IMG/VR virus record: IMGVR_UViG_3300021407_000008
Reading direction: 5' to 3' (one strand)
Origin: a virus
Lineage: Duplodnaviria > Heunggongvirae > Uroviricota > Caudoviricetes
Length of the DNA stretch: 64,000 nt
Positions 4,408 through 57,435 of the stretch are shown here, in pieces; position 1 is the first letter of the stretch, and every line of letters starts with the position of its first letter. The position numbers and the translations under genes are program-made. A model generated the notes under the pieces. It saw nothing but the letters and a program-made list of their open reading frames with translations, had not been told where the DNA came from and made no database searches.

Positions 4408-4421
4408 TGGACTATTTTAAC

Positions 4422-22523: not shown

Positions 22524-25500
22524 AAGTTCTGCCCCGCCGTGCAGTAAGTGTTCGTGCCATCCAGTTTGCAGGAGTACCAATCCACGGCATTCGCCGCTGC
22601 GGTCATCACCGGAGCGATTCCACCGGGCCACTTCACCGAGGTCCAAGTCACCGTATCGCTGCCTCCCGCCGCCTGCGTGATCTTCAGATAGATCGTCGTG
22701 ATAAGACTAGTCGGCTGCGCAAAGGCAATGGTCAGGTTACCAGTCAGCGTAATCGACTGATACATCCCATTCGCAGGCGTAACCGTAATCGAGCCGGTTG
22801 TGGCGTTGCCAGTATTGTAGGTTGCATCGTAGACTTCTCCGCTCTTGTCCACGGCTAACTGGGTCGTGTTTCCGACTGCCAGATTCAAGAGGTTAGAAAA
22901 TGCCGCCGATGATGTATTAGTTACGTTCTCGTAGATTCCTTGACCCACAAGGCTGGAGTTGTTCCATGTACTTTCAAGCTGCAAAAGCGGCGGTCCGGTG
23001 GTTCCGGTTACTCCCGCTTGCTGAATTTCTATTGGCGTTGCCGTGGAACCAGAAGCCGTTCCGATTTGCACTACGGACTGATTAGCCAATTTATTCGTCA
23101 GGGTACCGCCAGTAGCAGCAGACGTTTCTCCGAAGCTCATCGCGTCTTGTGCATCGGTAGTTTGTGCCCAGTTCCAAAGAATCGGATTGTTCCCATTGGC
23201 AATAGTAGTAGTAGTAGTAGCTGCCGCAACTTGATCTAGTCTAACTGTAGAAGAACCCCCAAATTGAACATAGGTTAAGGAACTACCAGATGAACCAATA
23301 CTGGTAACCTGTGATGTCAACAGCCATCCGGTATCGGAGTTTGCCGTTCCTGACTGTACCGGTATTATCCCCGTATTATTAACATCCGAAGGTGTATCGT
23401 AGTCGAGCGCCCTTGTGAATACAGCCGAAACCCCGGTCGTACCAACTACTGTAGCGGTGTAGACTCCGTTCTGAGATGCGGTTGATTGGTTTTTAAATAA
23501 AACCCGTTGACCGATTGTGTTAATAGTTATTCCGTCGAGCGTAAACGTTCCAGTAGCAGTGATTGTAAAGGTGTCTCCAACGCCGCCGCCTACCTGAACA
23601 TAAGTTCCGGTTAGGTTGGCCGTGGATGCCGCGAGGACGGCTACTGCGGGATTGACACCAGCCAAAGCGTTAGCAACAGCTAGGTCTGTATAGGCAGTAG
23701 TGGCTACCTTTGTAGAATTATTGTTTTGTGATTGGGTAACAGCAACAACGTTTGTTCCCAGTGCCCCAGTGGTAATTGTTCCAGAAGAACTAACGGCGAA
23801 CTCAAGCGTTCCCCCAGATAACGTACCGTTAGTATTCGTGGCTCCAAGGTAAGCATCAAGCAAGTCCCCGGTATTTGTCCCTGATCCATCTTCGGCAATT
23901 ACTAATGGAACTTGGCTAGTACCAGTTCCGGTTGTAGCCACCAGTAAAGCTCCAGATGTGTTGTTTGAGTTAGAAGCATTTGTAAAGTAAAACGGGTAAT
24001 GTAGAGTTCCTGTTTCTACACCACCGAAACCATAGTTATTGCCTGCAGTAGTCTCCGTCCTCTGTACCTGCGAGGCAGAGCCGGTAACTTGATCCAGCGA
24101 TGGAGCAGAGCCAGAAGCGGTTAACGTGCTAGCTGAGTTCATGTCAATCAATGGCAGAGTTGTACTTATGGTTGCCGTAGAACCGTCGCCTAGGGTAAAC
24201 GTCCCAGAAACGGCTACAACTACTCCAACCGTGGCACCTTGAGAATTTGTGCAAGAAGAAGTTCCGCCGCTGTCGGTTACTTGCCCTGCCGTGCTACCAG
24301 CGCAAACCGTATCGCCTACCGTCACGGCAGCAGAAGCATTAATTGGTGATTGGCTTGGCGGAGAAAGAATTATATCCGTGTTCGAGTTGGCTGTTTCTAT
24401 AATCCCTAGCCAGTTTTGCGGAGAAGCGCCGCAATTCTTTACGGTCATAGCAGTAGTTGAAGAAATGCAGGCTAAATCCCACTGAGTAGAGGTTGCGGCT
24501 TTAATGTATTGTTTGCCGAAGCCAAGTATTCCCTGTAGTCCCTGCGTTGCTCCCGTACTTGCTCCGGGTTCGATTAGGACAGAACCAGCGGTAGATGAAG
24601 CATTGGTCGCAGCGTTTGAGCCTCCAGTGATTAATACTGGACCACCAGCGGAAGATGCACCGCCAGCGCCAGTCTCATTAGCTCCACGGAGAGTCAATCC
24701 ACCAAGAGCAGAGTTAGCGGAGGCGTCTTTTCCGCCAGTGATTGTTAATAGTTGTGTAGTAGTCGCATCGCTTAGCAAGTTGCTGGATTCTAGCAAGTCG
24801 GAAACAACCGTATTGCCATTGGAGTCGAACTTTATCAGGGCATTGGTTGTAGGGCTACCGGTAGATAGTTGCAACAAAGCACCATTGCCTTGTTCTCCAG
24901 TTACCCCCGAAATGGACAACGTATTGGTACTTAAAATTATTGGAGACGTGAATGTAGCGGTTAAGTCGCTAATCGCTGGCTGTGTCTGCGTAAGAACACC
25001 ATTGGTCCCAAGAGAGTTCAACCACTTGTGGGAAGAGTTAGCGAGAGCTACAACCGTAGTACCAATAGTTCCAGCGTTGCCAATTTCGTGAACTCTTAAA
25101 TCTGCTGAGTCGAACCAAATCAACGTACCAGAAGCAGGGGCACTAGGTGCCGCCGAAGAAGGTAAGGAAATTTCCCCCGTTCCTGGAACGGTTGCAGACC
25201 CAGAAGCGAATCCAGCGGCAAATATATTGCCGGTAGCCGCGCATGAACCGCCAGAGCTAACATCAACTTGCCCTGCTGCCCCACGGCACAACCCAGTATC
25301 GGCAACATTTCCAGAAGTGGTCCAGATTAAGCTTCCGCCTAGATATTCGTTTCTGAATCTAAGTGCTGCGGAACCAAGGTCGATAGCATTATCGGACGCT
25401 GGAATCAACGAGCTATTAAGCGCCACGGCAGACAAGTTAGAAAGTTGTTGGTTAGCTCCCGATGCACCAGAATTCAATTGTTGAGTAAACACGTTTGTAG

Positions 25501-28500
25501 TAGTGCAGAAATATAGATTCTGGCCAGCGGTAGCATCGGTTGCAAAATAAACATCGCCAACCGTACACGTAGCAGGTTTTGCTGCCGTCAGTCCGGTAGT
25601 TGCTGGCGAACTATGAGCAGTGCTACGGAAGTTAACGCTTGCCGTGCTGGTTAGTCCGGTAAAGGTTCCTAATCCAGCGGTGCTTACACTATAAACGGAA
25701 GAACCACCTACCATCATGGTGATATATCCACCATAATTAGATATGCCGTTTGAGATACCGCCAGCAACCGCCGCTGGGCCTGCTGCTGGTGGGCAGTCAG
25801 TAGTTACGCTTCCATTGCCATCTAGACGGTAATAACCAATATGCGGACACGCTGCTTGGGTAACAACATTGGAGTTTCCGTCATCTACAATTACGTTTAC
25901 AGGAACGTTTGATCCTAGGCCACCATACCCACCAGCGGTTTCATCGTCGCTGTGCAGAATTTCTATTCCCACTGGAGTACCAAAACGGTTGCAGATATGG
26001 TATGCAGTAGAGTGGTTATTGCCAGTCGCGCCAGCGCTGATTCCGGTAGCGTTGCCACCTGTAGGTTGTCCGTTTTGCGTCCATCCAATATTTGAGTTAA
26101 TCCACAGATCATTGAATGTCCAGTTAGCCGTGGGACCATTACAACCGATTTCTACCGCCGCTAGTTTTGTAGACTCCAAGTGAGAATGCTCAAACGTCCC
26201 ACCCCAGCCGTTAGCAACGAAGTCATGTGCGGGGTACTCCGATCCAGCGGATTCCTTCAAGTTGGTGTTCGTAATAGTAAACTGCCGCCACGGCCTGAAA
26301 CCGGCAATTGTGTTAATTACGACTTCGTTTCCATAGGTGATTACCGTACCACCTGAACCAGCACTATCCCCTGCTCCGCCAAATCCATTTGTGGAAACTG
26401 CGTATTGGTTGGCGGCGGTGAATGGCGTACCAGCATAAGTCCATGGGTCAATTGTGTTGGCATAAGCAAGAGAACAAGTTGTTAATGTCGCAGATGTATG
26501 CCCGGCCGTAGAAGTGTTCAACCATCCGGTGATGGAACTGCTGCTAGATGAGTAGACCGTGAGAATCTTTCCGTTAGCAAAAGCATCTCCACCAGTACAA
26601 CCGCTGATGTAGACGAGTGCATTCATGGCGCATTTAGAAAAGCCAGCACCAGCAGCGGTTGTACAATTTGGACTACCAGTTTGTACCGTGTCTTGTGGAA
26701 AATCGTTAGTTGCCGTGATCGTAACTACGGCAGTGTTAGCTGCACCAGAAGCTATGGTTGCGCCAGTTACGGTCCCAGACATATCAGACATAGCCCCAAC
26801 CGTATATGTCCCAGAAATTGCTAGTCCGGTAATCCCGTTGGTTCCGTTGGCTGGGGTAGACAAACAACCATTGCCAGCGCACGGCGGAGTCCCGCCAGCG
26901 GTATGTGCAATACCTGAATCTGTTCCAATCAATACTTCTAACCCTGGATACGGAGAACATGTTGTGGTACCTGCTGCGCTGCAAGCTCCGCCGCTTACCG
27001 TAAAAATCATCACACAAGGAACGGTAGCGTTAGCACCGCACCCTTGCTGATTGAAGGCTGGAACTGACCAAGATGCCAGTGTAAATGGGGCCGCTCCGTC
27101 GCCAGCATTTGGATCGTTCGCAATTCCAGATGTTGCATTGCTGTGAACAATGTAAGCGCCTTCCCACGCTGTTCCGTTCTGTGTGGCACGAGAACCAGCA
27201 ACAATGCCAACAGGACAATCGTTGATCCCGATATAAGAAATCTTTGTATTATCTTGGCCAGACATGACGCTTGCGGCATAAGTAGGCCAGCTAGAAGCGC
27301 ACCCCAACTGCATTAGGCCAGCGTGAGTGTTATATGGACCGTAAACTCCAGCACCGTTAGCGGCTCCAGTTTGGCTTAGAGGCTGCCCCCAAGAAAATAA
27401 AGCGGGAGCGAATGTCGCGCCAGAACCAGCATTAAACGATACCGGCTTTAGTCCAGTAGGACCGTTGACGTTGTTGTTGCCAATAGCCGTTCCCCACATT
27501 TCGGCAGAGTTTTGCGGGTTAAAGTTTCCCGATGCAGCGAGTGGGATAATTCCAGCAGGAAGATATAGGGTACCGCTATTACCGGCGTCGGTAGATATTA
27601 CAAATGGGTTAGAAGAACACGAGATGTTGCCAGCACCTTGGATTTCTCCTCTGGCATCTGTAACTCCACCAGTATTGCTGTTGACCAAAGAAGTTGAAGC
27701 AGTATGGATAGCCGCGCAACGGTCTGCTCCAGAAAAAGCTACTGTCCATATTGGGTTAGCATTAGCTACGGGAGCGCTCGCACCATTGCCAACTGCTAGC
27801 TGTCCTTGTGGAACGGTGAGTCCGGCGATGTTGGTTGCGGTTGTAAAATAGGCAAACTGACTAGCCGTTGGTGGACCTGTGCTTGTAACCGTTCCCGTCC
27901 CAGAAGCATTGCAACTAACAGTAGTGGCACCGTTAGAAGCGTCTATGCAAAGCAGCGTTCCTGCTGCGCCAGTAATTGTTCCAGAAGTCAATATATTCGC
28001 ATCTGTACCCTGAAGCGGAACCGTGCTAGGTGTTCCGGTACCGGTTGCGATCTTAAGCATTCCAGTGGACAATCCGGCAAGATTGACTCCGTTGATGCCG
28101 GAATTGGTCATCACGCCGCCAGCGGTCATAGAAGAGTCGCCGCTAATAGCTGTTGCTACTGGAAGGTTTGAGGCGCTTCCAATCCAAATATCCGTGTTAG
28201 TCAAAGACGCTGCCGTAAGCTGATTGCTGGAATTTGTCGCGGCTACGGTTGCCGAAGTTGGGAAAGACCCGCCATTAACCTTGCTTGTGGTTGTTGAGCA
28301 GTTCCCGGCAGATGTAGTCGTGTCACCAGTAAGTGCTGGGGTTTGCGTACACGATAAAGAACCCGTCAAATCGCCAAACCCCGGCTGCGATTGTGTAAAC
28401 ACGCCCGTAGTATTGGTATAGCTTGTTAACCAATTGTGAGCCGAAGAAGCTATTGTTGATGGCCAAGTTAGCGTGCTTCCATTAGAACCGAATACGGGAA

Positions 28501-28906
28501 GATGGTTGGTTGTATTGAAAGCTATGACTGCATCGGTTGTAGGCGCTGCGCCCGCACCGTTGGGGAGAACTACGCCAGCCGTTACCGAAGCAGCAGACAT
28601 GTTAAATATGCCGGTAGAGCCAAGCGTTAGAGTATGGCTGGAATAAGACAAGTCAGTAAGCGTGGTTCCGCCGAATACCGCCGAACTGTTGTACTGAATA
28701 GCCCCGCTAGAACCTCCTGGACTTGAACCTGTACCGCCGCAAGTTCCGCCCGCATCTTCGATAACTGTTGCCGAAGCAAACGCTACGCAATGGCCTACGG
28801 TAATCGCTCCGGTAGTAGTAACTCCGCCACCGCCGCTAATCTGGGCGGACATGGCACACTGAAATGCCAGTAAGGCCAAAAATACTTTTAATGTATGTCT
28901 TAGCAT
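22517..28906 (-). CDS. Giant (2129 aa) Thr/Ser/Gly/Ala/Asn-rich fibre or adhesin-like protein with a signal peptide
   Basis: Uninterrupted 6.4-kb ORF. Signal peptide MLRHTLKVFLALLAFQCAMSA. Low-complexity repetitive composition. Confidence 0.55.
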   Translation of the reverse strand: MLRHTLKVFLALLAFQCAMSAQISGGGGVTTTGAITVGHCVAFASATVIEDAGGTCGGTGSSPGGSSGAIQYNSSAVFGGTTLTDLSYSSHTLTLGSTGIFNMSAASVTAGVVLPNGAGAAPTTDAVIAFNTTNHLPVFGSNGSTLTWPSTIASSAHNWLTSYTNTTGVFTQSQPGFGDLTGSLSCTQTPALTGDTTTSAGNCSTTTSKVNGGSFPTSATVAATNSSNQLTAASLTNTDIWIGSASNLPVATAISGDSSMTAGGVMTNSGINGVNLAGLSTGMLKIATGTGTPSTVPLQGTDANILTSGTITGAAGTLLCIDASNGATTVSCNASGTGTVTSTGPPTASQFAYFTTATNIAGLTVPQGQLAVGNGASAPVANANPIWTVAFSGADRCAAIHTASTSLVNSNTGGVTDARGEIQGAGNISCSSNPFVISTDAGNSGTLYLPAGIIPLAASGNFNPQNSAEMWGTAIGNNNVNGPTGLKPVSFNAGSGATFAPALFSWGQPLSQTGAANGAGVYGPYNTHAGLMQLGCASSWPTYAASVMSGQDNTKISYIGINDCPVGIVAGSRATQNGTAWEGAYIVHSNATSGIANDPNAGDGAAPFTLASWSVPAFNQQGCGANATVPCVMIFTVSGGACSAAGTTTCSPYPGLEVLIGTDSGIAHTAGGTPPCAGNGCLSTPANGTNGITGLAISGTYTVGAMSDMSGTVTGATIASGAANTAVVTITATNDFPQDTVQTGSPNCTTAAGAGFSKCAMNALVYISGCTGGDAFANGKILTVYSSSSSSITGWLNTSTAGHTSATLTTCSLAYANTIDPWTYAGTPFTAANQYAVSTNGFGGAGDSAGSGGTVITYGNEVVINTIAGFRPWRQFTITNTNLKESAGSEYPAHDFVANGWGGTFEHSHLESTKLAAVEIGCNGPTANWTFNDLWINSNIGWTQNGQPTGGNATGISAGATGNNHSTAYHICNRFGTPVGIEILHSDDETAGGYGGLGSNVPVNVIVDDGNSNVVTQAACPHIGYYRLDGNGSVTTDCPPAAGPAAVAGGISNGISNYGGYITMMVGGSSVYSVSTAGLGTFTGLTSTASVNFRSTAHSSPATTGLTAAKPATCTVGDVYFATDATAGQNLYFCTTTNVFTQQLNSGASGANQQLSNLSAVALNSSLIPASDNAIDLGSAALRFRNEYLGGSLIWTTSGNVADTGLCRGAAGQVDVSSGGSCAATGNIFAAGFASGSATVPGTGEISLPSSAAPSAPASGTLIWFDSADLRVHEIGNAGTIGTTVVALANSSHKWLNSLGTNGVLTQTQPAISDLTATFTSPIILSTNTLSISGVTGEQGNGALLQLSTGSPTTNALIKFDSNGNTVVSDLLESSNLLSDATTTQLLTITGGKDASANSALGGLTLRGANETGAGGASSAGGPVLITGGSNAATNASSTAGSVLIEPGASTGATQGLQGILGFGKQYIKAATSTQWDLACISSTTAMTVKNCGASPQNWLGIIETANSNTDIILSPPSQSPINASAAVTVGDTVCAGSTAGQVTDSGGTSSCTNSQGATVGVVVAVSGTFTLGDGSTATISTTLPLIDMNSASTLTASGSAPSLDQVTGSASQVQRTETTAGNNYGFGGVETGTLHYPFYFTNASNSNNTSGALLVATTGTGTSQVPLVIAEDGSGTNTGDLLDAYLGATNTNGTLSGGTLEFAVSSSGTITTGALGTNVVAVTQSQNNNSTKVATTAYTDLAVANALAGVNPAVAVLAASTANLTGTYVQVGGGVGDTFTITATGTFTLDGITINTIGQRVLFKNQSTASQNGVYTATVVGTTGVSAVFTRALDYDTPSDVNNTGIIPVQSGTANSDTGWLLTSQVTSIGSSGSSLTYVQFGGSSTVRLDQVAAATTTTTIANGNNPILWNWAQTTDAQDAMSFGETSAATGGTLTNKLANQSVVQIGTASGSTATPIEIQQAGVTGTTGPPLLQLESTWNNSSLVGQGIYENVTNTSSAAFSNLLNLAVGNTTQLAVDKSGEVYDATYNTGNATTGSITVTPANGMYQSITLTGNLTIAFAQPTSLITTIYLKITQAAGGSDTVTWTSVKWPGGIAPVMTAAANAVDWYSCKLDGTNTYCTAGQNFQ

Positions 28907-46619: not shown

Positions 46620-46702
46620 TGGTGCCGCTGGGGAGATTTGAACTCCCATGCCCGAAGGCGCTGCATTCTAAATGCAGTATGTATGCGTTCCATCACAGCG
46701 GC
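46620..46702 (-). tRNA. tRNA-Leu(TAG), class II
   Basis: 7-bp acceptor GCCGCTG/CAGCGGC. Anticodon loop TTTAGAA. Long variable arm, T-loop TTCAAAT, CCA encoded. Confidence 0.55.
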
Positions 46703-46704
46703 AT

Positions 46705-46787
46705 TGGTGCCAATGGAGAGACTTGCACTCTCACGCCTTGCGGCAACGGGGCTTAAATCCGTCGCGTATTCATTCCGCCACATTGGC
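46705..46787 (-). tRNA. tRNA-Leu(TAA), class II
   Basis: Acceptor GCCAATG/CATTGGC. Anticodon loop TTTAAGC. GNRA variable arm. CCA encoded. Confidence 0.55.
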
Positions 46788-46793
46788 AAAACT

Positions 46794-46884
46794 TGGTGGG
46801 TGCGGATCGAATTGAACGACCGAGGCTCACATGGAAGCCACTGGTTTACAGCCAGTCCGAGATTCCCAACATCTCAACGCACCC
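46794..46884 (-). tRNA. tRNA-Tyr(GTA), class II
   Basis: Acceptor GGGTGCG/CGCACCC. Anticodon loop CTGTAAA. Long variable hairpin. CCA encoded. Confidence 0.5.
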
Positions 46885-46889
46885 AAAAA

Positions 46890-46978
46890 TGGCAGAGGGT
46901 GGAGCATCGAAGCCCTAGCCCATCCCTGAGCTACCCACGGGTTCAAACCGCGTCGCCAGCCACTCTAGCGGCACCCTC
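46890..46978 (-). tRNA. Class II tRNA, possibly Ser(TGA); fold partly unresolved
   Basis: Acceptor AGAGGGT/ACCCTCT plus CCA. Candidate anticodon loop TTTGAAC. T-arm is ambiguous. Confidence 0.35.
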
Positions 46979-46979
46979 T

Positions 46980-47070
46980 GTGGCGGAGAGAGCGTGTGCT
47001 GACCACGCGTGCCCCATTTCTGGAAGCTCATCTTTAGCAAAGATGCGGTTTTACCGTTCACCCATCTCTC
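46980..47070 (-). tRNA. tRNA-Ser(GCT), class II
   Basis: Acceptor GGAGAGA/TCTCTCC. Anticodon loop TTGCTAA. CCA encoded. Confidence 0.5.
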
Positions 47071-47100
47071 CGTTTTAAAATTGTCAAAGACCTTAAACTT

Positions 47101-47185
47101 TGGTAGGCCAGAACGGACTTGAACCGTTACGCCTCGCGGCAGCGCATTTTGAGTGCGCCGTGTCTGCCATTCCAACCACTGGCCT
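47101..47185 (-). tRNA. tRNA-Leu(CAA), class II
   Basis: Acceptor AGGCCAG/CTGGCCT. Anticodon loop CTCAAAA. GNRA variable arm. T-arm ACGG-TTCAAGT-CCGT. Confidence 0.55.
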
Positions 47186-47271
47186 AAATTTTTACAGGGA
47201 TAAATAATACGAGCGCAGCGCGTATAGGCTGCTACTGAGTCGCAATGAGAGTGATAGAGTCATTGAAGTTT

Positions 47272-47347
47272 TGGGAGCAAGCCTTGGAGTCGAACCAAGT
47301 ATCCTTGCGTTATGAGCGCAAGATGAATTCCGTTTCACCCTCTTGCT
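47272..47347 (-). tRNA. tRNA-Met(CAT) (or Ile2/fMet)
   Basis: T-arm CTTGG-TTCGACT-CCAAG. Anticodon loop CTCATAA. CCA encoded. Confidence 0.5.
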
Positions 47348-47354
47348 TTGATGA

Positions 47355-47543
47355 TTAGAGCACGGGCACTGAAGTTGTGTCAAGTTTTTTAGCAATAAAA
47401 CCTCTCTTGGCTACTAAATATTGTTGCAGTAATTCTCTATAGTGAACTTGGCTTCTGGCGGTTCCGTACTTTTTCTTGCAACCAAGAATATAGCGACGAT
47501 AGGCTAACATTACATGTTCTCGGTTTGGGTGTGGATGGCTCAT
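47355..47543 (-). CDS. Small basic protein
   Basis: 62-aa ORF between tRNA genes. Confidence 0.3.
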   Translation of the reverse strand: MSHPHPNREHVMLAYRRYILGCKKKYGTARSQVHYRELLQQYLVAKRGFIAKKLDTTSVPVL

Positions 47544-47708
47544 TAGTATTTGGCGGTTGGCGGCTTATTCCACGCTCTTGTGGGCGGTACCGCTGCCCGA
47601 ATTACCGGCTGCAACTAGTGGTCGATCTACCGGTAGGGTCATCCCGTTTTGTTCCCTTTAACGACCCATGCCACTATCGGTGAAACCCGCCGCCAAGAAG
47701 ATTAGATT

Positions 47709-47886
47709 ACTCTGGCCACTCTCGCGGTGCAAGTTCTATGTTGGATTGTTCTAGCCATTGGGCATATGGTAACGGTTCTTTTACGGTGCGACAATAACGC
47801 TTGTAGCGTCCAATGGCAATACGTTCTCGCAGAACTACCTTGCCTAGCTTCTTGCGCCATTCTTGCTGAATTGGACGTGCTCTCAT
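47709..47886 (-). CDS. Small basic protein (about 59 aa)
   Basis: Manual translation gives MRARPIQQEWRKKLGKVVLRERIAIGRYKRYCRTVKEP... Confidence 0.25.
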
Positions 47887-47907
47887 AAAGTTAAACGGGA
47901 TAGCTTT

Positions 47908-47975
47908 CTGGCATACGCGGAATCGAACCGCGAACTCGGGTATCTCCGAATGTTGCCATTAACACTATGCGCCCT
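47908..47975 (-). pseudogene. tRNA-like element, possibly a degenerate tRNA
   Basis: Canonical T-arm CGCGG-TTCGATT-CCGCG, but the acceptor is imperfect and the anticodon loop has 6 nt. Confidence 0.3.
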
Positions 47976-48014
47976 ACTCGCTATCCCTATCGCGATTCTA
48001 TAGCATCGCGAATA

Positions 48015-48088
48015 CTGGTCCGGGTGGACGGAATTAAACCGTCATCTTCTGATCCCAAATCAGAGGCTCGATCTTCCAGCTACACCCG
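48015..48088 (-). tRNA. tRNA-Pro(GGG)
   Basis: Acceptor CCGGGTG/CACCCGG. Anticodon loop TTTGGGA. T-arm GACGG-TTTAATT-CCGTC. CCA encoded. Confidence 0.5.
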
Positions 48089-48193
48089 GAAACTTTTCTA
48101 ACGGAAACGTCGCGGGCCGAATCCGCGCTTTTGTAAATCCAACTTCATGGCCAGCAAGCATACCGCGTCCGGTTTCTCGTTGTCCGTTAGTAT

Positions 48194-48271
48194 TGGTGAG
48201 CAGTCTCCGAGTCGAACGGAATTCTGGTCGGCTTCAGCGACCCGCTAAATGACCCCACTAGCTCACTGCTC
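48194..48271 (-). tRNA. tRNA-Phe(GAA)
   Basis: Acceptor GAGCAGT/ACTGCTC. Anticodon loop CTGAAGC. T-loop TTCGACT. CCA encoded. Confidence 0.55.
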
Positions 48272-48353
48272 AAATTTGGTGGACCTGGACGGTTATCCTC
48301 CGTCTGCCTCCGCATTGCAAGTGCGGCGCTCTCGTAAGTGAGCTACAGGCCCA

Positions 48354-48433
48354 TGGGGTGGACGGTCGAAGTTGCATCGACAAAAGCACGGTTCCACAGA
48401 CCGGCCCGACATTCTGATAGTCGGCACGTCCAC
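48354..48433 (-). tRNA. tRNA-His(GTG)
   Basis: Acceptor GTGGACG/CGTCCAC with discriminator C. Anticodon loop CTGTGGA. CCA encoded. Confidence 0.45.
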
Positions 48434-48436
48434 AAC

Positions 48437-48508
48437 TGGAGCCGACTGTGCGTGATGATCGCACTCCGCAATGGGTACAAGCCGCTGCGCCCTCCCGAGG
48501 GAGTCGGC
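48437..48508 (-). pseudogene. tRNA-like element with no resolvable anticodon arm
   Basis: Perfect acceptor GCCGACT/AGTCGGC plus CCA. T-arm GTGCG-ATCATCA-CGCAC. The middle region does not fold canonically. Confidence 0.3.
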
Positions 48509-48513
48509 AAAAC

Positions 48514-48588
48514 TGGAGCCGCGAGAATGAATCCAACATTCGTAGGTTGCTTACCGAGCAACTGAACTAAGCACTGTTCTATCGCGGC
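48514..48588 (-). tRNA. tRNA-Thr(GGT)
   Basis: Acceptor GCCGCGA/TCGCGGC. D-stem GAAC/GTTC. Anticodon loop TCGGTAA. CCA encoded. Confidence 0.55.
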
Positions 48589-48590
48589 GG

Positions 48591-48662
48591 AGCCGGTACG
48601 GCGAATTGAGCGCCGATAACGAGTTTACGAATCTCGCATTCTTCCACTTGAATTATACCGGC
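48591..48662 (-). tRNA. tRNA-Thr(CGT) (no CCA encoded)
   Basis: Acceptor GCCGGTA/TACCGGC. D-stem ATTC/GAAT. Anticodon loop TTCGTAA. Confidence 0.45.
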
Positions 48663-48669
48663 CAAAAAC

Positions 48670-48744
48670 TGGAGAGCCGTGAGTGAATTCAACACTCGTA
48701 TAAGGTTTTGCAGACCTCAGCCTAAAGCACTCGGCCAACGGCTC
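48670..48744 (-). tRNA. tRNA-Cys(GCA)
   Basis: Acceptor GAGCCGT/ACGGCTC. Anticodon loop CTGCAAA. CCA encoded. Confidence 0.5.
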
Positions 48745-48748
48745 AATA

Positions 48749-48823
48749 TGGAGCGGTCGGCGGGAATTGCACCCGCGACGTTCTGTCTGGCAGACAGACA
48801 TTCTCGCTGCTGAATTACGACCG
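48749..48823 (-). tRNA. tRNA-Gly(GCC)
   Basis: Acceptor GCGGTCG/CGACCGC. D-stem ATTC/GAAT. Anticodon loop CTGCCAG. CCA encoded. Confidence 0.55.
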
Positions 48824-48993
48824 CAATTCTTCCTGCGCTTGTTTGCGTGTTGCGCCCTCCTTAATTCTGCGCTGAATATATATCTCGCGCATATATTTCA
48901 TTGTTTGCGCATTGTCTATGGAGCGAACATCCGAATCTGCCTCGGAACCAAGAGAGTGGAAATCTCTGATGCTGCTAATTACACCATGCTCGC

Positions 48994-49338
48994 TCATTCG
49001 CAACAAACTCCTTCCCTGTTAGTCGCCGTGCATTCCAAGCAATATTCCACGGCATGTTTTATGCACGGATAACCTTTCCAACCCTCGCGAGCCATATATT
49101 TATCCCAATGGCTTGCTACCCAATAACGCGGGCGAGACAATGAACCACAACGGTCATCCCAGCATTCCTTGCAACGCGCAGAACCAGCACCTTGCTTTGT
49201 TTCCTGGCCGCAATCGATACAGTAAGTGGCGGGAGTGGACGGTAATGATCCGCCTTCGCGAGATTTGGAGGCTCGCCGCTCACCTTTTGCATCTTCACTC
49301 CCGAATACTAACTTTCTTGCGAATTCAAGATACTTAAA
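48994..49338 (-). CDS. Cys-rich zinc-finger small protein
   Basis: CIDCGQETKQGAGSARCKEC...CLECT. Confidence 0.35.
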   Translation of the reverse strand, partial: FKYLEFARKLVFGSEDAKGERRASKSREGGSLPSTPATYCIDCGQETKQGAGSARCKECWDDRCGSLSRPRYWVASHWDKYMAREGWKGYPCIKHAVEYCLECTATNREGVCCE

Positions 49339-49357
49339 CATTGTTTTCCTTTCAAAA

Positions 49358-49434
49358 TGGCGCTCCGTGCGGGAGTCCAACCCGCTGTTTCCGTCGTGAC
49401 AGGACGGCGGCTATAAGCGTTCGCCCAACGGAGC
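49358..49434 (-). tRNA. tRNA-Asp(GTC)
   Basis: Acceptor GCTCCGT/ACGGAGC. Anticodon loop CTGTCAC. T-arm GCGGG-TTGGACT-CCCGC. CCA encoded. Confidence 0.5.
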
Positions 49435-49439
49435 AAACT

Positions 49440-49514
49440 TGGCGAGCGGTGGATGAATCCAACATCCGTTACTGCTTTCAGAGAGCAGCGCCTAAAGCAC
49501 TCGGCCAACCGCCC
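49440..49514 (-). tRNA. tRNA-Gln(CTG)
   Basis: Acceptor GGGCGGT/ACCGCTC (one G-U pair). Anticodon loop CTCTGAA. CCA encoded. Confidence 0.5.
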
Positions 49515-49520
49515 AAAAAC

Positions 49521-49594
49521 TGGAACCCGGTGGATGAGTTGAACATCCATTGCTTGAGTCAAAGTCAAGTGCCTCAGCCGTTCGGCCAACCGGG
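49521..49594 (-). tRNA. tRNA-Gln(TTG)
   Basis: Acceptor GCCCGGT/ACCGGGT. Anticodon loop CTTTGAC. T-loop TTCAACT. CCA encoded. Confidence 0.45.
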
Positions 49595-49777
49595 CTAAAC
49601 CTTCAACGGTATCGCACGCACACATCTCGCGCAGATTACCGAACTTGAATCTATATCCTTTTCTAGCTTGCGCCGCGCTTCGCATGCTTCTTCCACAAGG
49701 GCATAATGGTCGGTTCCCCTAGCACAGTAATCTATCGTGCCATTCAAAACAATCGCGCCAAATAATTCGTGCTTCAT
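49595..49777 (-). CDS. Small Cys-containing protein
   Basis: ORF from the internal start MKHELFGAIVLNG... Confidence 0.25.
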   Translation of the reverse strand: MKHELFGAIVLNGTIDYCARGTDHYALVEEACEARRKLEKDIDSSSVICARCVRAIPLKV

Positions 49778-49784
49778 AAATCCT

Positions 49785-49861
49785 TGGTGGCGGCAGCGAG
49801 AATTGAACTCGCATTCTGTCTGTGAAAGAGACATGTCCTAAATCAATTAGACGATACCGCC
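49785..49861 (-). tRNA. tRNA-Glu(TTC)
   Basis: Acceptor GGCGGTA/TGCCGCC. Anticodon loop CTTTCAC. T-arm GCGAG-TTCAATT-CTCGC. CCA encoded. Confidence 0.5.
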
Positions 49862-50885: not shown

Positions 50886-52040
50886 TTACTTCTCCTTCTT
50901 CCCGGCGTCAGCCCCGAGAGCTTTCGCTGCTTCGATTTCCCATGCGTAGTGCTCCTTCATCCATCTCTCCTTGTTTCGGCCGCAGTTTTGGATGCTGGGA
51001 GCCGATTGGATGAGGACCTTGAGCTTGGCAATCTCGGCCTCTTTCTCCGCGACTCGGGCAGCGGCGTATCGGCGCATGGATTCCTGTGAGACTTTCATTA
51101 TCGTCAAACCGTCAAGCAGTCGGCAGGTTGTGCAGAATAACGATTCGTTGCCTCCAGTTAACTCAGCGGTCACAGCGGATAGCAACTGGCCTTCGGGAGT
51201 ACTGGCTAGTTCACGTTCTTGTCGAGTCAATACTGCATCTTGATTGTCTCGCTCGGGGAGCGATAAGCCGTCTCCAGCTTCGGAGGGATTGACCTCGGGA
51301 AAGGTAGACCGCTCCGGCTCCCCGAACTTTATTAGCGGCTCCGTACCCGCTGACCCGCCAGCATTCGTTTCCGCTCGCTTGTCGTCGAGAAGTTTAGTGC
51401 AGACTTCTACGCACTGGTCGCAGATGTAGGCACGCTCCTTAAAATCGTTGGGTGTAACAATAAGCCAGTTCACCTCGGCCTGTGTTTTGTGACAAAAGTA
51501 GCATATCGGCCCTCCGACTACTTGAGCGTGCTGATGCACGCCGATTTGACTTGATAAAGCCTTTCGTGATGACTGCGGACAGTTCCCACACTGTAAGCCC
51601 TGGAATGGCACACGCCGACCGCAACCGTGGATACAAAACGATTGTCCAGAGGAAGATAACTGCATGGGAGCGGACTGCCGTTCGCTGGGCAAGGCTGCAT
51701 CGGATTCTTTGCTAAATAGGTCGTCACAATTGGGACACTTACCTCGATTATTTTCCCATGATGCCAGATAGTTCTCGCGCTTACATTGAGGACATTTCTT
51801 GAATTCAGGTTCTACTCCGGGACAGTATCGCATCGGTCGGCCTCCAAATGTGTGCGCCGAATGAGGCGCTTCATAACAGCATCGCTCGCCCTGCGCTGGT
51901 GCTGGAAGTTGATGCGCAACCCATCCTCGACATGCAGACGTTTTCTGGTGCAAATATCCGCCCGCATAAGGGTGCCCTTGATCGAACGCTGTTTCACAAA
52001 GTCCGACCTCGCCCTGCGCTGGTGCTTCCTTCTCGCTCAC
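50886..52040 (-). CDS. Multi-zinc-ribbon protein with a ClpX-type C4 zinc finger
   Basis: ICYFCHKTQAEVNWLIVTPNDFKERAYICDQCVEVCTKLL resembles the ClpX N-terminal zinc finger. Several CPxC motifs. GTG start after AAGCG. Confidence 0.4.
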   Translation of the reverse strand: MSEKEAPAQGEVGLCETAFDQGHPYAGGYLHQKTSACRGWVAHQLPAPAQGERCCYEAPHSAHTFGGRPMRYCPGVEPEFKKCPQCKRENYLASWENNRGKCPNCDDLFSKESDAALPSERQSAPMQLSSSGQSFCIHGCGRRVPFQGLQCGNCPQSSRKALSSQIGVHQHAQVVGGPICYFCHKTQAEVNWLIVTPNDFKERAYICDQCVEVCTKLLDDKRAETNAGGSAGTEPLIKFGEPERSTFPEVNPSEAGDGLSLPERDNQDAVLTRQERELASTPEGQLLSAVTAELTGGNESLFCTTCRLLDGLTIMKVSQESMRRYAAARVAEKEAEIAKLKVLIQSAPSIQNCGRNKERWMKEHYAWEIEAAKALGADAGKKEK

Positions 52041-53171: not shown

Positions 53172-53247
53172 TGGTGCCAGCACCGAGAATCCAACTCGGA
53201 TTTGCTCTTTAGGGGAGAGCCGTGTTCGTGCGTTACACTATGCCAGC
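53172..53247 (-). tRNA. Possible tRNA-Arg(CCT) (acceptor has two G-U pairs)
   Basis: T-arm CCGAG-TTGGATT-CTCGG plus CCA. Anticodon arm GCTCT-CCCCTAA-AGAGC. Confidence 0.35.
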
Positions 53248-53555
53248 AAAATCGGCCATCAGGAGAAACCGCAAACCTTCGCCAGCTACTTCGTCCTTCT
53301 GTGTTGGGTCACTCGAAACGATTAAGCTTAATCTATCCCAACCTTCTGCCCGCGCTTTCCACGGGATTAGGAGCGTTTCCTTCCAGACTTTTTGCCAACT
53401 TCGGTTGTTCCACTAGAACCATTACTGGACTGCATCTAACTTCGCAACCGCGACTCTAGATCGACTTTTCGGCTTCGGTCCAAGCGAACAGCCCAAGCAA
53501 GTCGTCCAACTTGTGCGTCAGTTTTTTCGTGGCCAAAATAAATATAGCATGAAAA

Positions 53556-53631
53556 TGGTAGGGCCATGAGGACTTGAACCCCAATCGCTCGTTCCGTAGA
53601 CGAGTGCCTTAATCCGGTTAGACGATGGCCC
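53556..53631 (-). tRNA. tRNA-Arg(ACG)
   Basis: Acceptor GGGCCAT/ATGGCCC. Anticodon loop CTACGGA. T-arm TGGGG-TTCAAGT-CCTCA. CCA encoded. Confidence 0.5.
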
Positions 53632-53634
53632 CGT

Positions 53635-53709
53635 TGGGACTCGCTGGCAGGCTCGAACTGCCGTTCCACGGGTAGAAGCCGTGATCCTTTCCTGTTGGAC
53701 GAAGCGAGC
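53635..53709 (-). tRNA. tRNA-Arg(TCT)
   Basis: Acceptor GCTCGCT/AGCGAGT. Anticodon loop CTTCTAC. T-arm GGCAG-TTCGAGC-CTGCC. CCA encoded. Confidence 0.5.
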
Positions 53710-53716
53710 ATAAAAT

Positions 53717-53792
53717 TGGTCGGGGCCAAGGGATTCCCACCCTTATCGGCTCGCTTAAAAGGCGAGGGTACTCAGTGTTGTACTAGACCCCG
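53717..53792 (-). tRNA. tRNA-Lys(TTT)
   Basis: D-stem GTAC/GTAC. Anticodon loop CTTTTAA. CCA encoded. Confidence 0.55.
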
Positions 53793-53793
53793 T

Positions 53794-53872
53794 TGGTGGG
53801 TGCGGCCCGAGTCGAACGGGCATGATCCAAATTAAGAGTTTGGAGCGCTTTCCATTACTCCGCCACGCACCC
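53794..53872 (-). tRNA. tRNA-Lys(CTT)
   Basis: Acceptor GGGTGCG/CGCACCC. Anticodon loop CTCTTAA. T-arm GCCCG-TTCGACT-CGGGC. CCA encoded. Confidence 0.45.
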
Positions 53873-53873
53873 A

Positions 53874-53947
53874 TGGTTCTCCGAGAAAGAGTCGAACTTT
53901 CGTAACGTGCTTATCAGACACGCGAACTACCGTTGTTCTATCGGAGA
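53874..53947 (-). tRNA. tRNA-Ile(GAT)
   Basis: Acceptor TCTCCGA/TCGGAGA. D-stem GAAC/GTTC. Anticodon loop CTGATAA. CCA encoded. Confidence 0.55.
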
Positions 53948-53953
53948 AAAATC

Positions 53954-54027
53954 TGGTACCGGATGATTGAGTCGAACAATCGTAAGTGGTGTGTAGGACC
54001 ACGGCTTTACCCTTAAGCTAATCCGGC
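53954..54027 (-). tRNA. tRNA-Val(TAC)
   Basis: D-stem GCTT/AAGC. Anticodon loop CCTACAC. T-arm GATTG-TTCGACT-CAATC. CCA encoded. Confidence 0.55.
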
Positions 54028-54029
54028 GC

Positions 54030-54104
54030 TGGTGGGCGATGGACGAATCGAACGTCCGACCAGAAGTTTATAAGACTTCCCATCTGCCACTGATGTAATC
54101 GCCC
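54030..54104 (-). tRNA. tRNA-Ile(TAT) (AUA-reading)
   Basis: Acceptor GGGCGAT/ATCGCCC. D-stem CATC/GATG. Anticodon loop CTTATAA. CCA encoded. Confidence 0.5.
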
Positions 54105-54111
54105 TAAAAAT

Positions 54112-54185
54112 TGGTCGCTCATTTCCGAGTCGAACGGAAGTAGGTGGGATATGAAGCCACTGCACTGCCCTTGTGCTAATGAGCG
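54112..54185 (-). tRNA. tRNA-Met(CAT) (second copy; possible initiator or Ile2)
   Basis: Acceptor CGCTCAT/ATGAGCG. D-stem GCAC/GTGC. Anticodon loop TTCATAT. CCA encoded. Confidence 0.45.
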
Positions 54186-54187
54186 GG

Positions 54188-54262
54188 CTGGCCGAGTAGG
54201 AATCGAACCTACGCATGGCGAAATTAACAGTTTCGTGCCTTACCAACTTGGCTACCGGCCAA
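54188..54262 (-). tRNA. tRNA-Asn(GTT) (no CCA encoded)
   Basis: Anticodon arm CGAAA-CTGTTAA-TTTCG. T-arm GTAGG-TTCGATT-CCTAC. Confidence 0.45.
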
Positions 54263-54993: not shown

Positions 54994-55728
54994 TTAGAGA
55001 AGTTTTATATCGGCTTCAAGCGTGGCTAGATCAATTCCGCTAGGGGTTTTCTGTGTAGCTTGGTTAAACCAGTCTTGGGTGATAATAACGAATTCTTCGT
55101 CTATGTATTGGGCGCTCCAAGCGGCAGACGCTTTTTGGTCCCATTTGGCCCACGTAACGTAATCATCGCCCAACGAACCATATCCGGGATGCAAGATTGC
55201 ATGGCCACCATCGATGCCGGTAGGTACAACTTCCCAAGATTCGCTATTCGCGAATTGCGATTGGGCGCTGGCTGGTAACTGAACACCAACAAGCGTGGCA
55301 CCAAATAAATCAACACCCAATTGGCGATGAACTAAATTCGTATGGTCAATCTTGGCCCAAGCCAGAATCTTGTGGCCAGCCATTCCGGTGTTGTGTAGGT
55401 AGTCTAGCGCGTCCGTGATGGCTGTTCCGTTATCGTTGGCTCCCGTGACAGGATTGAAGCCAGTAACCGCGCTGTATGCGCCAAGAACGTCTTGCGGTGT
55501 GGGAATAACTACGGTGCCAGTGTGGCAAGTTGCAAGTATTAAAGCATTAGCCGCCATGGCCCAAACGCAACAACCGTATTGATCGTTGCCGTACATAAGT
55601 TTTGCATTGTCTGGGGTGGCGTACTCGCGATAAACCTTAGTAGCAGGAGACGGCAACTCTCCAGTGAGATATTTGCTCAACTGGAGAGTGCGCGGGTGAG
55701 ACTTTGGGGCTAGTTTGCCAAGTTTCAA
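54994..55728 (-). CDS. Papain-like (C1 family) cysteine peptidase
   Basis: QYGCCVWAMA matches the Gln...Cys-Trp-Ala active-site block. GGHAILHPGYG matches the His block. DDYVTWAKW follows. Confidence 0.5.
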   Translation of the reverse strand: MKLGKLAPKSHPRTLQLSKYLTGELPSPATKVYREYATPDNAKLMYGNDQYGCCVWAMAANALILATCHTGTVVIPTPQDVLGAYSAVTGFNPVTGANDNGTAITDALDYLHNTGMAGHKILAWAKIDHTNLVHRQLGVDLFGATLVGVQLPASAQSQFANSESWEVVPTGIDGGHAILHPGYGSLGDDYVTWAKWDQKASAAWSAQYIDEEFVIITQDWFNQATQKTPSGIDLATLEADIKLL

Positions 55729-55729
55729 G

Positions 55730-56329
55730 TTATTTCAAGATTCCCAAACTGGCGTAATGGGCCAACTTGCCATGCTTGTGATAAACAACCAAGCCAGAAC
55801 ACTTCTTCTCGCCTTGGCATACTTCGGCCACCCATCGCGCCTGTAAACCTTCTGGCGTAAGCGCTACGGGAGACGCAGCCGCGAGCTTTGCAGCCTTGGC
55901 ATCGGTTGCACTGGTTACTTGCGGTAGCAGGGCTAGAATCGCTTCTGTGGTTGATGTAAGCACGGCATCCCACTTGGTTACGGTTTGAACCGCAACGGGG
56001 CTAGATATGTGTGCAGCTTTCATTTCTGCCGCTAGATTGCTGTTAAATGTCGCAATGGCAGCTTGCAGCTTTTGCAAGTCAGTTGTTGCGCCAGAAGCCT
56101 TCCACTGGTCGTAGTCAGCCTTGATTACATTGATCCCCTCGGAGCCAACAGAAACCAACACGCCGACCGCAGCCGCGTCAGGTGGGCTAACCAATGCAAC
56201 CGCTGGTGCCAGCGCGTTGACCATTTGCAAGATAACGTTAATATCAGCCAGCACTTGATCGACACTGCACGCGATCATAGAGAAGCAAAGCGCGAAAACG
56301 AGAGTGAAAGAAAAAAGTTTTTTAAGCAT
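55730..56329 (-). CDS. Lipoprotein (possible outer spanin or lysis-associated)
   Basis: Lipoprotein signal MLKKLFSFTLVFALCFSMIAC. Ala-rich. Confidence 0.4.
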   Translation of the reverse strand: MLKKLFSFTLVFALCFSMIACSVDQVLADINVILQMVNALAPAVALVSPPDAAAVGVLVSVGSEGINVIKADYDQWKASGATTDLQKLQAAIATFNSNLAAEMKAAHISSPVAVQTVTKWDAVLTSTTEAILALLPQVTSATDAKAAKLAAASPVALTPEGLQARWVAEVCQGEKKCSGLVVYHKHGKLAHYASLGILK

Positions 56330-56331
56330 GG

Positions 56332-56607
56332 TTAGATTTTACCTACGTTATCGGATTTTGTGTTGGGATTTTCGCTAACCGGTGAAACTACGGCACTTTT
56401 TGATGGCTGCATGTAGAATGCTCTCAATGCAACCGCTGCCGTGATAACCGCAGTCCTCGCATAATGGCGCAGACAAAGTGTTGTAAAACACCCGCCTTCG
56501 TCTACCGCATGAGCAAATGTAGCCACAAACGTTGCGGCAAAAGTTGTGATAGCGGCCTGCCAGCCAGCGGGAAGCGAAGCCCAGAACTTCTTAAGTTTAG
56601 CGACCAT
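56332..56607 (-). CDS. Small membrane protein (holin-like)
   Basis: Two hydrophobic segments. Lies within the lysis cassette. Confidence 0.35.
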   Translation of the reverse strand: MVAKLKKFWASLPAGWQAAITTFAATFVATFAHAVDEGGCFTTLCLRHYARTAVITAAVALRAFYMQPSKSAVVSPVSENPNTKSDNVGKI

Positions 56608-56657: not shown

Positions 56658-56882
56658 TCAGAGAAATGACTGAATTCGTTGATTACACGCTGGTTGCCAG
56701 CGGTCGTATTCCCACGGAGAACAGTTGTTGTTTGGCGAGGTTTCTAGCCGTTCGTTTGGGGAGTCGTATGGTTCAAAAATAATATCTTCACCCTCGAACA
56801 TGTTTATCTCTTGAACGGGAGTTAGCTTTATTAGCAGGAGAGAGAATAACGCGATAATGAGCGTCCCGCACAGCAACCGCAT
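56658..56882 (-). CDS. Small protein with an N-terminal transmembrane segment (spanin or holin-like)
   Basis: MRLLCGTLIIALFSLLLIKL. Confidence 0.35.
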   Translation of the reverse strand: MRLLCGTLIIALFSLLLIKLTPVQEINMFEGEDIIFEPYDSPNERLETSPNNNCSPWEYDRWQPACNQRIQSFL

Positions 56883-56973: not shown

Positions 56974-57435
56974 CTAGTAATATTTGGGCATTAAATCTTT
57001 AACTAAGTCTGGGTAGGACGCATCGCCGCCGCCATTGTATCGCAACATCGCCTTTGTGGAGTCGCCGCCCGATTCGGTTAAGCAGTTGCCAAACTTCTTG
57101 CAACCCAAATCCAACCCTACGTCTGGGTCGCAAAGCTCACTGAGATATTTTCCGGTGAACCCCAATTCTCTAGCCGTCTGCCCCATGATCTGCATCAACC
57201 CCCACGATGTTGCTCGGGCATTGGCTTCACTCATGGTGTGAACTACGCCCGTGTTGACTAACGGTTGCACGTACTTGTCAAAGAAAAGCGGTTCATATCT
57301 CGTGGCCCACGGTATCCATCCACCCGATTCATGGTCGGCAATGGCGCACACCAGCGCCGTATCGAGCAGATACTTGGTTGCATACTTGCGAGCTAGTGTT
57401 ACGCGGGCTTCGATAGTGGAGAAGTCGTAACCCAA
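56974..57435 (-). CDS. Endolysin, lytic transglycosylase (SLT domain)
   Basis: AIADHESGGW...SWGLMQIMGQTA is the SLT catalytic signature. TTG start with a strong SD. Confidence 0.7.
   Translation of the reverse strand: MGYDFSTIEARVTLARKYATKYLLDTALVCAIADHESGGWIPWATRYEPLFFDKYVQPLVNTGVVHTMSEANARATSWGLMQIMGQTARELGFTGKYLSELCDPDVGLDLGCKKFGNCLTESGGDSTKAMLRYNGGGDASYPDLVKDLMPKYY

Follow-up and report, generated by a model that had tools for sequence, protein, structure and literature searches.

The window, by which we mean the whole stretch of 64,000 nucleotides analysed here, is a tailed-phage genome with genes for a large terminase, portal, primase/helicase, RecT-like protein and exonuclease, together with 27 tRNA genes. 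On its minus strand, positions 54994..55728 encode a protein of 244 aa, a C1-like papain-fold cysteine peptidase, which starts with TTG and lacks a signal peptide; the ORF exists as the earlier note had described it. The start codon is supported by the family alignment: homologues align with the phage peptidase from residue 1 and Gly4 is found in 99 of 102 sequences, indicating that the TTG start is correct. In a public gene call (P0001, 228 aa), the identical protein begins 16 codons too late. The gene lies amid tRNA arrays and replication/recombination genes and not beside the tail genes, and the terminase and portal genes are about 40 kb away from it.

Read along the minus strand, the order of genes begins with an exonuclease (57730-58764), followed by a 75-aa Cys-rich ORF and an SLT-domain lytic transglycosylase (56974..57435; Pfam SLT E 2.4e-11), a probable endolysin that also matches PHROG transglycosylase and endolysin families and has neither a hydrophobic segment nor a signal peptide. 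These are succeeded by two small proteins: one of 74 aa (56658..56882) with an N-terminal TM or signal-anchor segment (19-residue Kyte-Doolittle value of 2.34 for residues 3-21), and a moderately hydrophobic one of 91 aa (56332..56607; maximum 19-residue Kyte-Doolittle value of 1.28), a tentative holin that has no match in Pfam or PHROG. Directly before the peptidase is a lipoprotein of 199 aa (55730..56329; lipobox SMIAC), and downstream of it are a 74-aa ORF and then a tRNA array. A single nucleotide separates the TAA stop of the lipoprotein from the TTG start of the peptidase, a spacing which suggests that the two are translationally coupled. Thus, among the neighbors named in the earlier note, the lipoprotein, with its lipobox ...SMIAC, and the SLT endolysin stand as stated, whereas the "holin-like" label can be retained only tentatively. 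The 199-aa protein is the only credible lipoprotein ORF of the cassette: a search there for a second, embedded o-spanin-like lipoprotein ORF yielded only an unconvincing 46-aa ORF in an alternative frame. Neither the peptidase nor the lipoprotein nor the three neighboring ORFs examined matched a PADLOC model at E<=0.1, and an anti-phage defence reading was rejected on this ground.

The peptidase contains two motifs previously read as the papain active-site blocks, QYGCCVWAMA (residues 50-59; 55552..55581) and GGHAILHPGYG (residues 174-184; 55177..55209), whose joint presence is far beyond chance. The proposed Cys-His pair is borne out: Cys54 (codon 55567-55569) and His176 (codon 55201-55203) are invariant in 44 close homologues and in 102 diverse ones, and hhalign aligns them with papain Cys25 and His159, respectively, the GYG of the second motif also falling on that of papain. 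Within the first block, two assignments had to be revised. The nucleophile is the second of the paired cysteines, Cys53 being replaced by Asp in 75 of the 102 sequences; and Gln50, which had been equated with papain Gln19, is variable, the true equivalent being Asn48 (codon 55585..55587), six residues upstream of Cys54 and invariant (102/102). Asn48 is aligned with the Gln19 of the papain oxyanion hole and, bearing an amide side chain one methylene shorter than that of Gln, is probably functionally equivalent to it. Across the 102 sequences only seven positions are invariant family-wide, namely N48, C54, Y85, D99, G101, H176 and W193. By eye, the T192-W193-G/A194 of the family resembles papain S176-W177-G178; the preceding position, 191, where Asn175 is expected, is Val/Ile in 76 of the 102 sequences, and the hhalign register puts papain Asn175 on the variable position 202 of the phage peptidase, which is also not Asn. 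The near-invariant Glu211 (101/102; codon 55096..55098), selected on account of an intein insertion site at the D-E211 motif described below, is a candidate for the missing third catalytic residue, in place of Asn175. As papain residue 1 is aligned with residue 28 of the phage peptidase, the latter has an N-terminal extension of 27 residues (55648..55728) with the conserved pattern KLGKLxPKxHPxTLxLxxYL, which is modelled by AlphaFold2 with a pLDDT of ~95 though it is mostly coil, and which could possibly act as a short pro-region.

The AlphaFold2 model of the peptidase, built on 44 homologues (pLDDT 92.9, pTM 0.91), displays a two-domain papain fold, with Cys54 at the N-terminus of the helix formed by residues 54-67 and His176 in the beta-strand formed by residues 172-184. 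Both structure comparison and profile-profile alignment recover C1 enzymes as the nearest relatives, with the xylellain type (Xylella fastidiosa; PDB 3OIS) as the closest structural neighbor; like it, the phage peptidase is compact and lacks an I29 prodomain. The reference for the hhalign comparisons was made from five canonical C1A mature domains and validated against the PDB; its profile recovers cathepsin K/L, actinidin and papain from the PDB at E-values of 1e-90 to 1e-105. The diverse profile of 102 sequences aligns with this reference over 177 columns with a probability of 95 % (E 3.8e-8), and a narrower profile of close homologues does so with a probability of 58 % (E 9.6e-5). The register makes chemical sense, with the P-x-x-x-D-W of the family consensus opposite papain P2-E-Y-V-D-W, D99-N-G101 opposite C63-N-G65, and the G-Y-G opposite G165-Y-G167. 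Hence, we conclude that the phage protein is truly, if remotely, homologous to the papain family.

This relationship lies below the reach of the standard sequence models. The window peptidase has no match in Pfam even at E<=10, Peptidase_C1 (PF00112) and Inhibitor_I29 included, and PF00112 is touched by only two of the 102 relatives, at sub-threshold levels (best E 0.022). NCBIfam offers one chance-level match; among the PDB sequences phmmer finds nothing usable and the family profile finds none at E<=10. The sole family match is PHROG 19005 (phrog_19005), annotated as "unknown function". A look for a propeptide or signal peptide, as proposed in the earlier note, turned up neither a signal peptide nor an I29 propeptide, and a hydrophobic N-terminus is absent. 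With Cys53, Cys54 and Cys68 as its only cysteines, the phage peptidase can form none of the three conserved disulfides of papain, one of whose disulfide partners, Cys63, aligns with the invariant Asp99 of the family. The assignment to the C1 family therefore holds in part: the protein is a papain-fold cysteine peptidase with C1 enzymes as its nearest relatives, but it is not a canonical member, being without a PF00112 match and the C1 disulfide set, with Asn in place of Gln19 and Val/Ile in place of Asn175. Given that it departs from canonical C1 enzymes in sequence model, in Gln19, in Asn175 and in zymogen organisation, we treat it as representing a divergent C1-like family, which is neither an ordinary part of C1 nor something categorically new. 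The fold ranking and the lack of Pfam matches rule out an identity as CHAP (PF05257) or NlpC/P60 (PF00877), the outcome that the earlier note had held against its own proposal; neither fold was assigned.

In contrast to papain and the cathepsins (MEROPS C1A; PF00112), the phage protein falls below every Pfam threshold, is predicted to be cytoplasmic and is phage-encoded. The family stands beside xylellain by structure with no sequence-level match to it, and differs from xylellain-type C1A enzymes in having Asn for Gln19 and no equivalent of Asn175. The N-terminal pro-region of xylellain, in the 2013 work of Leite and colleagues, is said to cover the active-site cleft, and we know of no lysis-cassette context or lipoprotein partner for that enzyme. 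The PeiW/PeiP/PeiR peptidases of archaeal viruses (MEROPS C71) show structural scores much lower than those of the C1 enzymes and, unlike the phage family, are transglutaminase-like and target archaeal pseudomurein.

The family is very large. We recovered 252 full-length relatives from a large protein collection, all labelled "hypothetical" and without Pfam domains, and an exhaustive profile search detected 5,243 cluster representatives (50 % identity) at E<=1e-3. Same-fold phage proteins in BFVD carry the annotations Peptidase_C1, "Peptidoglycan binding-like" and "N acetylmuramidase". Xylellain-type C1A peptidases have already been noted in Myoviridae and Siphoviridae without functional study, and no role has been assigned to the C1A peptidases found in giant viruses and in some phages (PMC10380794). 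The view that C1 peptidases are uncommon in phages thus needs qualifying, in light of those reports, the same-fold Peptidase_C1 proteins of phages in BFVD, and the more than 5,000 cluster representatives of the present family. Carriers found by genome scan include Acidobacteriota, Singulisphaera, Methylocella, Alphaproteobacteria, Binataceae and Verrucomicrobiota MAGs, with the Acidobacteriota relatives showing 49 % and 45 % identity on contigs of 1.36 Mb and 0.82 Mb. A homologue (PhiKX1_890 in phiKX1) is also carried by the Komagataeibacter phages phiKX1, phiKX2 and phiKM1, inducible prophages that were the sole cultured carriers encountered. One fused member comes from an Acidimicrobiales MAG (Actinomycetota) and is monoderm-associated. 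The host of the window phage is probably a soil diderm such as an acidobacterium.

Four relatives contain intein/LAGLIDADG matches; those to Intein_splicing are below the Pfam cut-off, and the intein calls rest on the junction sequences. In P0163 and P0158 the intein is lodged exactly between Asp53 and Cys54 (...GNDQLGD/CLGAG...ASHN/CTIAAAGH, with slashes at the junctions), so that the catalytic Cys doubles as the +1 nucleophile of the intein. P0212 and P0269 show a second site, between Y208 and C209-D/E210-E211. Inteins are typically inserted at the active sites of proteins of importance to the element carrying them, and, judged from these junctions, the two sites would independently flag Cys54 and the D-E211 motif.

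The domain architectures of the relatives point to the bacterial envelope. In P0251 the peptidase is fused to a Pesticin/T4-lysozyme-like domain and is encoded immediately behind RcGTA-type tail genes, at the position of an endolysin; in P0165 and P0223 it is fused to an Rv2525c glycoside-hydrolase-like domain (Rv2525c_GlyHyd-like), in P0240 to an r1t-type holin, and in P0161 to a lipoprotein signal via a linker. Additional partners are a PLD-like domain (P0175) and DUF4214 (P0215), and in several other members Pro-rich linkers lead into a conserved helical module of small size. Occurrence as a domain of multidomain lysins is thus a feature of the relatives and not of the window protein itself. 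The CHAP and NlpC/P60 endolysin domains are peptidoglycan amidases and endopeptidases of clan CA, Cys-His enzymes of the papain superfamily that occur in phage lysis modules and are often fused to muramidases and wall-binding domains; as some members of the present family show the same kinds of fusion, these domains are, by analogy, probably its closest functional counterpart.

The gene neighborhoods of the relatives concur. The only GenBank phage match to the window protein, MW202816 (31 % identity; annotated "cysteine protease and beta"), has a peptidase gene that overlaps the end of an N-acetylmuramoyl-L-alanine amidase gene, with a multi-TM protein and a lipoprotein encoded upstream. Loci L003 and L004 display the order VanY/M15-like enzyme, multi-TM protein, lipoprotein, small signal/TM protein and peptidase; L002 and L097 a DUF5675 protein, small TM proteins, lipoprotein and peptidase; L096 a Peptidase_M15_3 protein, TM protein, lipoprotein, small protein and peptidase; and L098 a Tlde1-like L,D-peptidase domain, lipoprotein and an overlapping peptidase. 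No further Pfam matches to cell-wall enzymes were found elsewhere in the 12-17 kb of L096-L098. In phiKX1, inspection by eye revealed, ~2.7 kb upstream of the peptidase, a Tat-lipoprotein, a TM protein and an ORF that is SLT-like, with a second lipoprotein overlapping the peptidase stop. A Pfam survey that covered 65 non-redundant viral loci, with 147 same-strand ORFs lying at most 2.7 kb upstream of the peptidase, found wall enzymes to be the commonest families: DUF5675 (5 of 147), Glyco_hydro_25 (4 of 147), Peptidase_M15_4/VanY (4 of 147), Amidase_2 (2 of 147), Hydrolase_2 (2 of 147), Rv2525c (1 of 147) and GH19 (1 of 147); two holin families were also encountered. This amounts to 19/147 (P ~1e-10 against a background of 2 %, which is an assumed value and not a measured control); leaving out DUF5675, which is a putative wall enzyme, it amounts to 14/147 (P ~2e-6 against the same assumed 2 %). 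Wall hydrolases, drawn from at least eight families, are recurrent companions of the peptidase over a range of 25-70 % identity, and co-location with endolysin and holin genes is conserved in the window, locus L001, L002-L004, L096-L098, the 147-ORF survey and phiKX1. Accordingly, the link to lysis, which had been drawn from the window alone, is strongly reinforced by these recurrent neighbors across divergent phages. Many distant relatives have neighbors without recognizable function.

The lipoprotein that precedes the peptidase likewise belongs to a conserved family. With an iteratively built HMM, we detected it immediately before the peptidase gene in 20 of 84 loci, which comprise most of the relatives with more than ~42 % identity and in which the two genes usually abut or overlap; it is also present in an Acidobacteriota chromosomal contig (L087) and in L096-L098. 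Its alignment shows an invariant lipobox Cys, His107 and Cys171/Cys177 pair, and AlphaFold2 predicts a four-helix bundle. The family has no relative in Pfam, PHROG or PADLOC, nor among PDB sequences, and a fusion of the lipoprotein to the peptidase is seen in none of 271 family proteins. The arrangement resembles the spanins (Rz/Rz1) in that a lipoprotein-containing module stays constant beside exchangeable endolysins in phages of diderm hosts, but there is no sequence or structural similarity, and the partner here is a 200-aa four-helix bundle and not a short Pro-rich o-spanin.

Taken together, these observations lead us to propose, with a probability of about 0.5, that the peptidase is an accessory envelope-cutting enzyme acting at lysis, most likely on the peptide stem or cross-link of peptidoglycan. 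It would be the last gene of a lysis-type operon that also encodes the SLT transglycosylase, two small membrane proteins and the lipoprotein, to whose gene its translation would be coupled. The folded peptidase is predicted to build up in the cytoplasm, with residues 1-27 possibly serving as a short pro-region, and, once a holin permeabilises the inner membrane, would reach the envelope together with the equally signal-less SLT enzyme. There, a Cys54 thiolate/His176 imidazolium pair would cut a peptide or amide bond, with Asn48 supplying the oxyanion hole, and Trp193 and Glu211 supporting His176. The substrate would most plausibly be a peptidoglycan peptide stem or cross-link, complementing the glycan-cutting SLT enzyme. 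We favor peptidoglycan peptide, at close to even odds, on account of the muramidase fusions and the presence of a member on a monoderm-associated contig. Several points weigh against this choice: the closest structural relatives are genuine proteases and not peptidoglycan hydrolases, and we know of no peptidoglycan peptidase that adopts the two-domain fold of C1-type enzymes; several relatives already have a peptidase (M15, Tlde1-like) as their upstream wall enzyme, beside which a second one would be partly redundant; the equivalent of Asn175 is missing, and the window protein has no cell-wall-binding domain; and the constant pairing with a lipoprotein beside a varying endolysin is more reminiscent of spanin genes than of a second endolysin.

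This last point keeps alive a role in the outer-membrane step, the third of Gram-negative lysis. Here the peptidase, once released by the holin, would form a module with the lipoprotein and cut the protein tethers that join the outer membrane to peptidoglycan, or else lipoproteins of the outer membrane, and thereby replace or assist spanins. Spanins work by membrane fusion and not by catalysis, and disruptins by membrane permeabilisation. The pair persists, often with overlapping genes, beside an upstream hydrolase that varies among SLT, M15_3, VanY, DUF5675 and Tlde1-like enzymes, some of them peptidases themselves; C1-type enzymes are protein-cleaving proteases; the carrier genomes are from diderms (Acidobacteriota, Planctomycetota, Alphaproteobacteria); and the window cassette has no canonical embedded o-spanin. 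However, the lipoprotein accompanies only 20 of the 84 loci and is missing in the broader family, one member is from an Actinomycetota MAG, lipoprotein-peptidase fusions number 0/271, the lysozyme fusions are more simply explained as bifunctional endolysins, and the lipoprotein could be an unrelated spanin-like or exclusion protein, leaving this reading unlikely. A specific version of it, in which, following holin and endolysin action, the lipoprotein docks or activates the released peptidase to form a proteolytic outer-membrane-disruption module in soil phages with Acidobacteriota-like hosts, is doubtful to a somewhat greater degree. The coupling to, and co-inheritance with, the lipoprotein gene could also be expected of a regulatory or processing protease that cleaves the lipoprotein, holin/antiholin or endolysin to time or trigger lysis, leaving the host envelope itself alone, as could a cytoplasmic location within a lysis operon and a conserved N-terminal segment open to auto-processing. 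We consider this improbable: the lipoprotein is exported and the peptidase is not, so that they would meet only after holin action; the fusions to a muramidase domain and to a lipoprotein signal point to direct action on the envelope; and distant relatives have no conserved partner that could be a substrate.

Two further explanations would detach the enzyme from lysis. It might be a host-directed protease, acting in takeover, anti-defence or nutrient scavenging, with the lysis genes nearby by chance. The lack of an assigned role for the C1A peptidases of giant viruses and some phages (PMC10380794), the setting of the window gene amid tRNA arrays and replication/recombination genes, and the functionally unrecognizable neighbors of many distant relatives would all accommodate this proposal, whereas the recurrent association with wall hydrolases, the lysozyme-like fusions and the absence of PADLOC matches speak against it, and we give it little credence. 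Alternatively, it might be associated with the virion or its morphogenesis, acting either as a prohead protease or, at entry, as a tail-tip lysin. This would be in keeping with a cluster located after tail-fibre genes in several relatives and with weak same-fold BFVD matches within tape-measure/morphogenesis proteins (ranks 29-30, E > 0.01), but it is highly improbable given that the terminase and portal genes lie some 40 kb off, that the protein is small, single-domain and free of fusions to structural proteins, and that co-occurrence with holin-like and lipoprotein genes fits exit and not entry. The prohead variant was rejected on both genome position and fold, the known prohead proteases, to our knowledge, having other folds.

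In phage lysis, the papain superfamily is well known only through its CHAP, NlpC/P60, Amidase_5 and C71 domains. PeiW/PeiP, CHAP and NlpC/P60, which the present enzyme would resemble in its mode of action, are wall peptidases of viruses from this superfamily (PMC10318531), and we found no description of a phage C1-type lysin in the open-access literature. A full two-domain C1-type enzyme in a lysis role is as yet uncharacterised. The inteins at the catalytic Cys independently mark the importance of the protein to the phages that carry it. This very large family lacks a Pfam model, and its members are nearly always labelled "hypothetical"; its definition would aid the annotation of thousands of soil-phage genomes. 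If the enzyme is a peptidoglycan peptidase, as we favor, it would provide a new class of catalytic domain for endolysin engineering. If, instead, it acts with the lipoprotein on the outer membrane, it would represent a third way in which Gram-negative lysis can accomplish its final step, and would bear on how spanin-less phages escape from their hosts.

The public JGI gene call for P0001, a protein identical to the peptidase of the window, is 228 aa long and begins 16 codons downstream of the TTG start used here (window 55713-55728). Because residues 1-16 are conserved among the homologues, with Gly4 present in 99 of the 102 aligned, the sequence comparison shows the TTG at 55726-55728 to be the true start of the gene. 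Two copies of the heptamer CTTGAAA, separated by 10 nt, are found at window 55719-55738 (minus strand), spanning the stop of the lipoprotein gene and the start of the peptidase gene: CTTGAAATAA CTTGAAACTT. This repeat may be relevant to a termination-reinitiation coupling of the two genes, and the available data suggest that they are translationally coupled.

The lipoprotein itself (window 55730-56329, minus strand) represents a conserved family of about 200 aa without a Pfam model, with homologues at loci L002-L004, L006-L009, L013-L020, L022, L024, L029, L039, L087, L088 and L096-L098. His107 is invariant in the family, which also has a Cys171/Cys177 pair; modeling predicts a four-helix bundle fold. 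Candidate roles include those of a docking factor, an inhibitor, a spanin-like protein or an exclusion protein. An alternative-frame ORF of 46 aa embedded in the gene (window 56125-56265, minus strand) contains a lipobox-like LTLSC, which is probably a chance match.

Several relatives of the peptidase (P0163, P0158, P0212 and P0269) are split by intein/LAGLIDADG elements at two sites: one lies between family positions 53 and 54 (window about 55567-55569), exactly before the catalytic Cys54, and the other between positions 208 and 209 (about 55102-55104), before C209-D/E210-E211. At the former site, Cys54 doubles as the +1 nucleophile of the intein.

Other relatives are elaborated by additional domains. 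In P0175, the peptidase is joined to a PLD-like (PLDc_2) domain (residues 326-450), and a domain of this type is also encoded by one upstream neighbor of another relative in the survey of 147 ORFs; it could be a lipid- or nucleic acid-cleaving partner of the peptidase. A helical module of about 35 aa, with the approximate consensus PW..ARH.G.N..AA.A...W....G and belonging to no known family, recurs in the C-terminal tails of P0166, P0193, P0201, P0208, P0224 and P0262, where it follows the peptidase domain and a proline-rich linker, and may act as a wall- or partner-binding tag.

The endolysin position of several cassettes is occupied by proteins with DUF5675 or Tlde1-like domains (L002 4098-4601; L097 5186-5665; L098 6982-7368). 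The DUF5675 sequence contains the motif H-x-G-N...D-G-C-I-L-V-G, which is reminiscent of the YkuD-type L,D-transpeptidases; thus, DUF5675 may constitute a hitherto unrecognized endolysin class.

In the window, the region with the lysis-type cassette is flanked by 27 tRNA genes, an unusually large number for a phage, in two arrays (46620-49861 and 53172-54262, minus strand) that share their strand with the protein-coding genes. Between the arrays lies the gene for a 384-aa cysteine-rich protein with a ClpX-type C4 zinc finger (50886-52040, minus strand; Pfam E 9e-11), and a very long ORF of 2,129 aa (22517-28906, minus strand) is situated between the terminase and replication genes.

The only cultured carriers of the peptidase family that we found are inducible Komagataeibacter prophages, among them phiKX1 (locus L005; LC644975), which encodes an SLT-like ORF, a TM protein, two lipoproteins and a peptidase homologue at 1810-6403, all annotated as 'hypothetical'. 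The inducible Komagataeibacter prophages would make a tractable test system.
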